A stretch of DNA of 48,720 nt from a virus (lineage: Duplodnaviria > Heunggongvirae > Uroviricota > Caudoviricetes). The notes beneath the pieces are model-generated. The model was not told the origin of the DNA. It did not search any database and was given only the letters and a program-made list of their open reading frames with translations. Every line of letters starts with the position of its first letter. Positions within the stretch are counted from its first letter, which is position 1. Positions 29,547 through 32,143 of the stretch are shown here, piece after piece. A program made the translations under genes and the position numbers. The stretch is taken from IMG/VR virus record IMGVR_UViG_2541047815_000004; one strand, 5' to 3'.

Positions 29547-30044
29547 CTACATTTGATGCTTTTTATCTCTTAAAGATTCATAGATCTGTTGACAAGTCAC
29601 TCCTGCGATGTAGCGTTCGTCAGCAATTTCAGCATAAAGCTGAGCTTCTGCTGCAATATATCCGAGCATGTTGGTGAGCATTCCTTCGGCGGTTTTGGTT
29701 GTTTTGCCTCTGACGGCAGCGGCAAGATCTGCGGTATGCTTCGCTGCGTCAAGGCGTATGGCATATTTTTTTGCTTCGGCACGCAACTGGTTAACACTAT
29801 CAGACAGATAAGCAGCCCTGGCAGAAATTTCAGCAGATTTCTGTTGTGCATCTTTAACAGCCTCATCACGGGCTATAGTTCGCCCCTGTTCAATTATTCG
29901 AGCAGCAAATTGAGCATTTACCTCTTGTGATAATGCGGCAGCATCACGTTCCGCCCATTTTTTTTGCCATCCTCTGTCGCTCCAGACATTTCCGACGATA
30001 AATCCTGACAACACGAGAAAAATCACCATGAATATCTGATTCAC
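29547..30044 (-). CDS. rzpQ: Inner-membrane spanin Rz (i-spanin), 165 aa
   Basis: N-terminal transmembrane segment followed by a coiled-coil periplasmic domain; directly after the endolysin gene with overlap. Confidence 0.8.
29597..29869 (-). CDS. rzoQ: Outer-membrane lipoprotein spanin Rz1 (o-spanin), embedded in the +1 frame of Rz; start ambiguous (Met1, Met2 or Met7)
   Basis: Lipobox LTSC after a signal peptide, Pro-rich mature part; fully embedded in Rz as in lambda/P21. Confidence 0.6.
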
Positions 30045-30459
30045 TGTTCTATCCCCCAGCAGGTTAATGCGCTCTCCTGGTCACGACGAATAACCTGACC
30101 GTAACAGTTATTTGAACGAATGCGGCAATCGCGTCCGCCATCCTTAATCCACCAGCGAATCGCTTCGCATGCACCTTTACGATCACCAGCATTCAGCCGC
30201 TTATAAAACGTCGACGGGAAACACTTACCGGGGCCAATGTTATAGGGACAAAATGACGCGATACCCGCTTTTTGTGGTTCGGTCAGTGGTACTTTAATAT
30301 TGCGCTCCACCCATGCCAGCGCCTTATCACGCTCAATGGCGTTGACCTGGTCGCATTTTTCCTTCGACAGTTTCATATTGGGAAAAACGGTTTTTGATCT
30401 TACCCAGCAATAGTGGACACGCGGCTAAGTGAGTAAACTCTCAGTCAGAGGTGACTCAC

Positions 30460-30759
30460 ATGACAAAAACAGTATCAACCAGTAAAAAACCCCGTAAACA
30501 GCATTCGCCTGAATTTCGCAGTGAAGCCCTGAAGCTTGCTGAACGCATCGGTGTTACTGCCGCAGCCCGTGAACTCAGCCTGTATGAATCACAGCTCTAC
30601 AACTGGCGCAGTAAACAGCAAAATCAGCAGACGTCTTCTGAACGTGAACTGGAGATGTCTACCGAGATTGCACGTCTCAAACGCCAGCTGGCAGAACGGG
30701 ATGAAGAGCTGGCTATCCTCCAAAAGGCCGCGACATACTTCGCGAAGCGCCTGAAATGA
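30460..30759 (+). CDS. insE: IS3 transposase OrfA (InsE), 99 aa
   Basis: HTH-containing OrfA recognised as IS3 InsE; track ORF starts at an upstream GTG. Confidence 0.85.
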
Positions 30760-31622
30760 AGTATGTCTTTATTGAAAAACATCAGGCTGAGTTCAGCATC
30801 AAAGCAATGTGCCGCGTGCTCCGGGTGGCCCGCAGCGGCTGGTATACGTGGTGTCAGCGGCGGACAAGGATAAGCACGCGTCAGCAGTTCCGCCAACACT
30901 GCGACAGCGTTGTCCTCGCGGCTTTTACCCGGTCAAAACAGCGTTACGGTGCCCCACGCCTGACGGATGAACTGCGTGCTCAGGGTTACCCCTTTAACGT
31001 AAAAACCGTGGCGGCAAGCCTGCGCCGTCAGGGACTGAGGGCAAAGGCCTCCCGGAAGTTCAGCCCGGTCAGCTACCGCGCACACGGCCTGCCTGTGTCA
31101 GAAAATCTGTTGGAGCAGGATTTTTACGCCAGTGGCCCGAACCAGAAGTGGGCAGGAGACATCACGTACTTACGTACAGATGAAGGCTGGCTGTATCTGG
31201 CAGTGGTCATTGACCTGTGGTCACGTGCCGTTATTGGCTGGTCAATGTCGCCACGCATGACGGCGCAACTGGCCTGCGATGCCCTGCAGATGGCGCTGTG
31301 GCGGCGTAAGAGGCCCCGGAACGTTATCGTTCACACGGACCGTGGAGGCCAGTACTGTTCAGCAGATTATCAGGCGCAACTGAAGCGGCATAATCTGCGT
31401 GGAAGTATGAGCGCAAAAGGTTGCTGCTACGATAATGCCTGCGTGGAAAGCTTCTTTCATTCGCTGAAAGTGGAATGTATCCATGGAGAACACTTTATCA
31501 GCCGGGAAATAATGCGGGCAACGGTGTTTAATTATATCGAATGTGATTACAATCGGTGGCGGCGGCACAGTTGGTGTGGCGGCCTCAGTCCGGAACAATT
31601 TGAAAACAAGAACCTCGCTTAG
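30756..31622 (+). CDS. insF: IS3 transposase OrfB (InsF), 288 aa, DDE catalytic domain
   Basis: Recognised as IS3 InsF; overlaps insE in the -1 frame as expected for IS3-family frameshift fusion. Confidence 0.85.
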
Positions 31623-31831
31623 GCCTGTGTCCATATTACGTGGGTAGGATCATTTTCCATCCACCACTGTGGCACCCCGACAGATGGTCCATATGCCAGA
31701 ACCATCGCGGTATGCCATTGTGTGGTTACCTTCTTTTTCGTCCAGAAACTGGTCAAGTATCTGAGGAGCAGATGCGCCAGCACCAATCAGCGCCAGAACG
31801 GCAGCCGACAGGCCGTATCTGATTTTTGTGT

Positions 31832-32143
31832 TCATATATATTTATGATGAGGACGCTCGTGCTTATTGGCAGGATTTTCAATCTTAAAGGAGTACTGATG
31901 CTGCAGATAAGACTCAACTTTTTCTGACAATTTTTCTGCTACTTCCAGGAAGACTTGCCGGACGCTCCTTCTGGCTGCTGCCTCATAAAACTCCAGCGCA
32001 GCTCCTTCAACACGGTCCATGGCGACATCCAGGTCAAAAATTTCACCGTCAAAGCGTTCCTTGTCCTGTAAGGCTACAGTTACCGTAACTTTATTCTCAA
32101 AATTACGGACTCCTTTCACAACCAGTTCATAGTCTTGAGTCAT
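31832..32143 (-). CDS. ydfR: YdfR (DUF1327) lysis-cassette-associated protein, 103 aa
   Basis: Recognised from memory as Qin YdfR; between holin and endolysin. Confidence 0.75.
   Translation of the reverse strand: MTQDYELVVKGVRNFENKVTVTVALQDKERFDGEIFDLDVAMDRVEGAALEFYEAAARRSVRQVFLEVAEKLSEKVESYLQHQYSFKIENPANKHERPHHKYI

Follow-up and report, generated by a model that had tools for sequence, protein, structure and literature searches.

The pairing of an S21-type pinholin with a signal-anchor-release (SAR) endolysin is the classical arrangement of phage 21. Here we describe a prophage with a cassette of this type, in IMG/VR virus record IMGVR_UViG_2541047815_000004, a stretch of 48,720 nucleotides that is called the window below, in which the predicted SAR endolysin gene rrrQ is interrupted by a complete copy of the insertion sequence (IS) IS3. 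On the evidence given below, this is very probably a recent IS3 knockout of the sole endolysin gene in a complete Qin/Tritos-type prophage, and a case of near-neutral decay.

Close described relatives of this cassette are found in the prophage Qin of Escherichia coli K-12 and in Escherichia phage Tritos (LF82 prophage 3, OV696610), which is 85-99% identical to about 35 kb of the window. Tritos is produced spontaneously at 2.8x10^6 genomes/mL, forms plaques on MG1655 hsdR- and is a siphovirus by imaging (PMC9928086). When the two parts of the interrupted gene are rejoined, rrrQ of the window is identical at 534 of 534 nt to both K-12 MG1655 rrrQ and the Tritos endolysin gene, and the order essQ/D-ydfR-rrrQ-rzpQ/rzoQ, with cspB and cspI flanking, is also shared with both. 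The window differs from both in having this gene split by IS3. In addition, the window holds what appears to be a complete 47-kb prophage, in contrast to the cryptic 20-kb remnant that is K-12 Qin, and Tritos has another immunity/replication module and other tail fibres than the prophage of the window.

Comparison with phage 21 S21/R21 (3HDE/3HDF) and with RrrD of DLP12 (4ZPU) shows a common PF04971 holin with an MKSM dual start. RrrQ aligns with both endolysins over residues 9-174, with E35/D44/T50 in register with R21 and with a weakly hydrophobic N-terminal segment. However, RrrQ is only distantly related to R21 (3HDE, phmmer E 2e-16), the SAR behaviour that defines the R21 type is predicted here from the protein sequence, and an extra gene, ydfR, lies between holin and endolysin. 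The inserted element, in turn, closely resembles IS3A of K-12 (insE1/insF1), with which it shares 1257 of 1258 positions, two overlapping open reading frames (ORFs), an AAAAG motif, TG...CA ends and a 3-bp target duplication. It differs from IS3A, which is annotated at 1255 bp without the first 3 bases, in comprising the full 1258 bp and in occupying a new insertion site.

IS3 in the T5 tract of rrrQ

The element, its target and the two parts of the gene are located in the window as follows.

30395..31652, plus strand: IS3, complete, 1258 bp, 1 nt off K-12 IS3A, ends TGATC...GATCA
30392..30394, no strand: target-site duplication TTT, left copy, from comparison with the empty site in 20KM0223N
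31653..31655, no strand: target-site duplication TTT, right copy, from the same comparison
30460..30759, plus strand: insE (IS3 orfA, 99 aa), ORF open; PF01527 HTH_Tnp_1, E 5e-10
30756..31622, plus strand: insF (IS3 orfB, 288 aa, DDE/rve transposase domain), ORF open; PF00665 rve, E 5e-28
30722..30726, plus strand: AAAAG motif, read from the sequence, for a programmed -1 frameshift giving a predicted OrfAB transposase
31653..31835, minus strand: rrrQ 5' fragment, codons 1-61, with SAR-like segment and catalytic E35/D44/T50, from ORF reading and R21 alignment
30041..30394, minus strand: rrrQ 3' fragment, codons 62-177 and stop, with neither catalytic residues nor export signal

The empty site was recovered by a megablast search that used window 24001-48720 as query. 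It reads GGTTTTTCC, with 5 T, in E. coli 20KM0223N, while the window reads GGTTTT-IS3-TTTTCC, with 4 T on either side; of the T5 run within rrrQ codons 61-63, the three central T's are duplicated. The complete genomes of 20KM0223N (dog, Switzerland) and MEI148-20EC (soil) both carry this empty site, and both match the query at 100.0% in two pieces over 23,459 bp, exactly 1261 bp (1258 + 3) below the query. After subtraction of these 1261 bp, the window differs from 20KM0223N by 4 substitutions (window 34421, 37072, 43600, 46461) and 0 indels in 23,459 bp. Moreover, removal of IS3 together with exactly 3 bp gives a single 177-aa minus-strand ORF, whereas removal of 2 or 4 bp gives multiple stops. 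The IS3 insertion in rrrQ is confirmed as real, and is not a chance resemblance.

The anatomy of the element is that of a complete IS3. It starts with TGATCTTACC and ends with GGTAGGATCA, and its imperfect terminal inverted repeats agree at 28 of 40 positions. Alignment to IS3A leaves one internal mismatch, a synonymous CAG/CAA change that is the only difference of insE from K-12 insE1; insF is nucleotide-identical to K-12 insF1 and also matches PF13333. The AAAAG motif sits within the insE/insF overlap region, where frameshifting is predicted, and RefSeq labels the same element in other strains 'programmed frameshift'. With a length of about 1258 bp, TG...CA ends, two overlapping ORFs, AAAAG, a 3-bp duplication and near-identity to the reference, the element belongs to the IS3 group of the IS3 family. 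Its transposase genes are antisense to the lysis operon, with IS3 on the plus and the operon on the minus strand.

A sequence-only reading of this DNA had described a complete 1258-bp IS3 with intact insE/insF and both inverted repeats, TTT at each end of it, and an in-frame join of 61 and 116 aa into a 177-aa lysozyme once IS3 and one TTT are taken out. The IS3A alignment, the domain matches and the repeat match agree with the first statement, the TTT is duplicated relative to the 20KM0223N site, and the rejoined ORF contains no further frameshifts. That reading had also proposed looking for the empty site in related strains, where it was indeed present (20KM0223N and MEI148-20EC).

The insertion was further called recent, and this can be examined through its junctions. 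A 300-bp probe spanning each junction did not recover the window junction from any of 5,426 complete E. coli genomes; where coverage was high, the match fell into two pieces and came from an IS3 copy elsewhere in the vicinity. GTDB species representatives and JGI metagenome contigs contained no match to an exact 37-mer that spans the left junction. Because the junction is absent elsewhere and only 4 substitutions in 23.4 kb separate the window from its IS-free relatives, the insertion is young and private to its lineage. The claim of recency therefore stands, but the argument first offered for it, the perfect in-frame reconstruction, is weak evidence of age because K-12, LF82 and 20KM0223N all have the same rrrQ anyway.

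The interruption falls within the catalytic domain. The rejoined RrrQ matches PF00959 Phage_lysozyme over residues 33-167 (E 1e-23) and carries the E-x8-D-x5-T triad of GH24 SAR endolysins (E35/D44/T50). Since the domain spans these residues, a break at residue 61 takes away the greater part of it. The IS3 end supplies the TGA (31650-31652) at which the 61-aa fragment stops, without a foreign tail; the 3' fragment amounts to 116 aa, with 111 aa in its longest ATG-initiated ORF. The most hydrophobic 19-aa stretch of RrrQ is formed by residues 9-27 (LSAAVLALIGAGASAPQIL; mean Kyte-Doolittle 1.67). It is Gly/Ala/Ser-rich; 11 of the 21 residues at 7-27 are G, A, S or T, and K4 and R6 precede the segment, a signature typical of SAR domains. 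By this test, one of composition only, and by the R21 alignment, RrrQ is a predicted SAR endolysin, an assignment that fits the evidence.

The prophage and its lysis genes

The window comprises a whole 47-kb Qin-type lambdoid prophage in ydfJ, with a truncated ydfJ at 4-1284 and an integrase at 47440-48717 at the other end. In 20KM0223N the same prophage occupies the Qin locus, with ydfJ' on one side and rspB on the other. The Qin gene set (dicB/dicF/ydfD, hokD, rem, ydfU, Q, cspB/F/I, gnsB, pinQ) is present. The name rrrQ, which the gene had already been given, is justified because the prophage sits in ydfJ beside rspB as K-12 Qin does and because the rejoined gene equals K-12 rrrQ throughout.

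When the roughly 55 proteins annotated in 20KM0223N were compared with the window by tblastn, all matched over their full length, mostly at 100% identity, except RrrQ, which is split. The full-length genes include those for terminase, portal, protease-capsid fusion, tail, tail fibre, Q, ydfU, replication/immunity, dicB, ydfD, exonuclease, xis and int. This comparison detected no frameshift or truncation in the other prophage genes. By gene content, the prophage appears to be complete and to belong to an active phage type, with rrrQ as its only visibly broken gene. A tblastn search of the window with RrrQ for a second endolysin matched only the two rrrQ fragments, other lysozyme families not having been profile-searched; the prophage would hence be left with no endolysin of its own, rrrQ being apparently its only endolysin gene.

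The other lysis genes and the late regulator are the following.

32148..32363, minus strand: essD/essQ-type holin (71 aa, S21 family, MKSM dual start), intact; PF04971 'P21 holin S', E 4e-34
31832..32143, minus strand: ydfR (DUF1327, 103 aa), intact, with no assigned function; profile match and 20KM0223N comparison
29547..30044, minus strand: rzpQ, Rz-like i-spanin (165 aa), intact, GTG start; PHROG 312, E 2e-56
29597..29851, minus strand: rzoQ, Rz1-like o-spanin lipoprotein (84 aa, lipobox LTSC), intact, embedded in rzpQ; PHROG 11621, E 2e-8, in a position that agrees with the K-12 annotation
34268..35020, minus strand: Q late-gene antiterminator (ydfT-like, 250 aa), intact; PF03589, E 4e-54, and PHROG 127

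On the minus strand the genes follow in the order essD/essQ-type holin, ydfR, rrrQ and rzpQ with its embedded rzoQ. The holin covers 63 of 64 PF04971 profile positions and is 100% identical to the 20KM0223N protein; the profile match, the length and the dual start place it among the S21-family pinholins (class II holins). An i-spanin with an o-spanin lipoprotein in the +1 frame makes rzpQ/rzoQ a two-component embedded spanin pair. Pinholin, spanins and Q had been read as intact, and the profile matches, the Rz1 lipobox and the 20KM0223N comparison agree with this. The rzpQ start overlaps the rrrQ stop (GTGA, 30041-30044, minus strand) and the rrrQ start overlaps the ydfR stop (ATGA, 31832-31835), which suggests translational coupling along the cassette.

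Several other features of the prophage lie apart from the lysis genes. The tail-tip genes J and I (window 8020-12242, minus strand) have 84% and 78% protein identity to those of 20KM0223N and are both full length, and the genes that flank them on both sides are 99.6-100% identical; the pattern suggests that the host-specificity module was exchanged by recombination. In 20KM0223N, lom is interrupted by a different IS3-family element (13863-15111 of its locus), whereas the window has lom intact (7347-7943), and the two sister prophages thus seem to be decaying through different IS hits. Flanked by hokD and the replication genes is a 763-aa AAA ATPase at window 37517-39808 (minus strand); it matches PDC-S06 (E 7e-72), a candidate family for anti-phage defence in PADLOC, and, more weakly, LmuB. 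Tritos has other genes at this position (ImmA/IrrE and others), which may be a variable slot for defence genes or morons. Rfam matches above the gathering threshold give these RNAs, typical Qin cargo that is here within a full-length prophage.

3340-3538, minus strand: IS009 small RNA
28945-29330 and 33102-33494, minus strand: cspA-type thermoregulator leaders, upstream of cspI and cspB
37048-37214, minus strand: sok antitoxin RNA beside hokD
43893-43944, plus strand: DicF

Predicted effects on lysis and competing explanations

In the course of events that we propose, a transpositionally competent IS3 entered the three central T's of the T5 run. Translation of rrrQ would then end after residue 61 at the TGA supplied by IS3, and the resulting stub would keep the SAR segment and E35/D44/T50 while missing about two thirds of the GH24 lysozyme fold. 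Neither piece of RrrQ would be expected to degrade murein, because the catalytic piece is without most of its fold and the C-terminal piece has neither catalytic residues nor an export signal. Upon induction, Q-dependent late transcription would still yield the S21-type pinholin, with depolarisation and death of the cell. Without endolysin, however, the sacculus would stay intact, the spanins would be unable to fuse the membranes and the virions would be trapped inside. Spanin synthesis itself may be lowered, the intact spanin genes notwithstanding, because the rzpQ start overlaps the rrrQ stop; through this coupling, output may drop even with the Q-modified polymerase reading through the antisense IS3. 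We infer a defect in lysis and release.

Several points weigh against a knockout with these effects. The insertion is known here from the assembled sequence, and the lysis defect is a prediction. The immunity/replication region differs from that of Tritos, and the scheme above assumes that the prophage of the window can be induced. A second lambdoid prophage elsewhere in the genome could supply endolysin in trans, and the prophage itself carries ydfD, intact at window 44304-44492, whose product lyses cells when overexpressed ectopically (PMC8835842).

The prophage may already have been non-functional for other reasons, in which case IS3 fell into dead DNA. K-12 Qin is a cryptic remnant of the same phage type, the IS3-family element in lom of 20KM0223N makes such prophages appear to be decaying, and the immunity/replication module is unlike that of the proven active Tritos. 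These facts make the explanation possible, although on the whole unlikely: the approximately 55 other genes are full length compared with 20KM0223N, head, tail, terminase, Q, int and xis are all present, and Tritos, with its high identity over about 35 kb, is active.

It is also conceivable, at a somewhat low probability, that the insertion is real and leaves no phenotype, lysis being provided in trans by an SOS-co-induced lambdoid prophage (for example through a DLP12-type rrrD) or by the prophage's own YdfD. Holins, endolysins and spanins are not phage-specific, and several copies of the cassette are common in E. coli, where a 3-kb query, which includes the multicopy IS3, matched a median of 5 places per genome. 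The intact ydfD and the lytic activity of its product speak for the second source, but ydfD belongs to the early dicB operon and not to the late operon, and YdfD lysis was shown on overexpression only. Moreover, a dedicated endolysin, its gene identical to the rejoined rrrQ, is retained in phages of the Tritos type. A recent knockout of the only endolysin gene remains the explanation that we favour over both.

IS insertions in related cassettes

The knockout might have been selected, as a convergent domestication by silencing of the lysis module, or might reflect a hot spot for IS3-family elements at the T5 tract. This was approached with chimeric queries carrying IS3 in both orientations, and 17 loci were inspected. 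At least 15 other independent insertions of IS3, IS2 or ISKpn26 were found across strains in the 1.56-kb rzpQ-rrrQ-ydfR-essD cassette, and nearly all the IS3 insertions among them have clean 3-bp duplications. They are distributed over the genes as follows.

rzpQ, 6 hits: E3, Ec73552, UPEC-245U, 38I23CPO002 and 13P460A (IS3); MB22 (ISKpn26)
rrrQ, 5-6 hits: KKo009, MB57, a 12-genome clade including Ecol_AZ155, and 2018-11-1BCC (IS3); SW070912 (IS2)
ydfR, 1 hit: C9 (IS3)
essD, 3 hits: FT130 and STK78-E (IS3); STLEFF_47 (IS2)

A single orientation shared by all IS3 copies was an artefact of joining pieces from one strand, and the query with reversed IS3 found the opposite orientation too.

The interrupted rrrQ alleles in RefSeq resemble that of the window in gene, prophage type, same or related IS and 3-bp duplications (5 bp for IS2), and PGAP annotates such rrrQ genes in other strains as partial lysozyme pseudogenes. 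None has the window junction. They lie at sites 870, 1240 and 1309, in coordinates of the IS-free cassette reference (L001 coordinate minus 7199), compared with 1193-1195 here, with SW070912 (NZ_CM129860) as the exception. In that strain a 1331-bp IS2 (locus 1198-2528; window 30390-30396) uses the same GGTTTTTCC tract, and its 5-bp TTTTC duplication overlaps the TTT target of the window, although it is an independent event by a different IS3-family element. In addition, rrrQ site 1309 holds IS3 in one orientation but with two duplication lengths, 4 bp (CAGA) in the Ecol_AZ155, CUVET17-972 clade and 3 bp (CAG) in 2018-11-1BCC, which reflects either two independent insertions or a single event followed by a 1-bp change.

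These repeated hits, the overlap of the SW070912 duplication with the TTT of the window and the two duplication lengths at site 1309 would be expected if the Qin/Tritos lysis cassette, and especially the GGTTTTTCC tract, were a recurrent target of IS3-family elements, whether through a sequence or structure preference of the transposase or through repeated selection for non-releasing lysogens. If that were true, the present insertion would be one case in which IS elements convergently silence prophage lysis in different E. coli lineages. We consider it quite unlikely. Among the matches listed, distinct IS3 sites number about 13 per 1.74 kb in the cassette (about 7.5/kb) compared with about 32 per 4 kb in the flanking 2 kb on each side (about 8/kb), a rough count based on 30 of 55 forward-orientation matches, with non-cassette sites told apart by span length only. 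Since the density is similar to that of the flanks, an enrichment of IS3 specific to lysis was rejected as unsupported. Among about 15 events within 1.6 kb, a coincidence at one site is not improbable (rough estimate about 0.1-0.3), and an induced cell that has lost the endolysin would not escape the pinholin. A literature search on rrrQ returned nothing about IS3 in rrrQ, and almost only papers on peptide motifs.

Because IS3 is no denser in the cassette than beside it, a general build-up of IS3 in dispensable prophage DNA, and not selection against lysis, would account for these insertions, and the event in the window is best read as probable near-neutral prophage decay rather than a selected adaptation. 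The possible domestication raised by the sequence-only reading found no specific support, as the pinholin would still kill the induced cell and the cassette shows no excess of IS3. Finally, a misplacement of an IS3 copy into rrrQ during repeat resolution is hardly credible, even though IS3 is multicopy in E. coli (a median of about 4-5 places per genome), such repeats are a classic source of misassembly and the same junction was found in no other genome, because a misjoin would not generate a target duplication, and here both junctions are exact at the IS3 termini, with the 3-bp duplication typical of IS3 and a net length difference from the empty site of exactly 1258 + 3 bp.

The recent knockout of rrrQ involves no new mechanism: good descriptions exist of IS3, of rrrQ, of prophage genes broken by IS elements and of the pathway that pairs a pinholin with a SAR endolysin. 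The insertion allele is new, but its kind is thoroughly familiar, and it is an ordinary knockout, as in many other E. coli strains. Prophage-prediction tools would call the prophage of the window 'intact', though release of particles by itself is probably impossible. The change may be reversible, as rrrQ could be restored if IS3 were excised precisely along with one copy of TTT, or if the prophage recombined with a related one. Our results thus offer a clean, dated example of what would be the first step of prophage decay, in which a Tritos-like, apparently complete phage is disabled by a single IS3 insertion.

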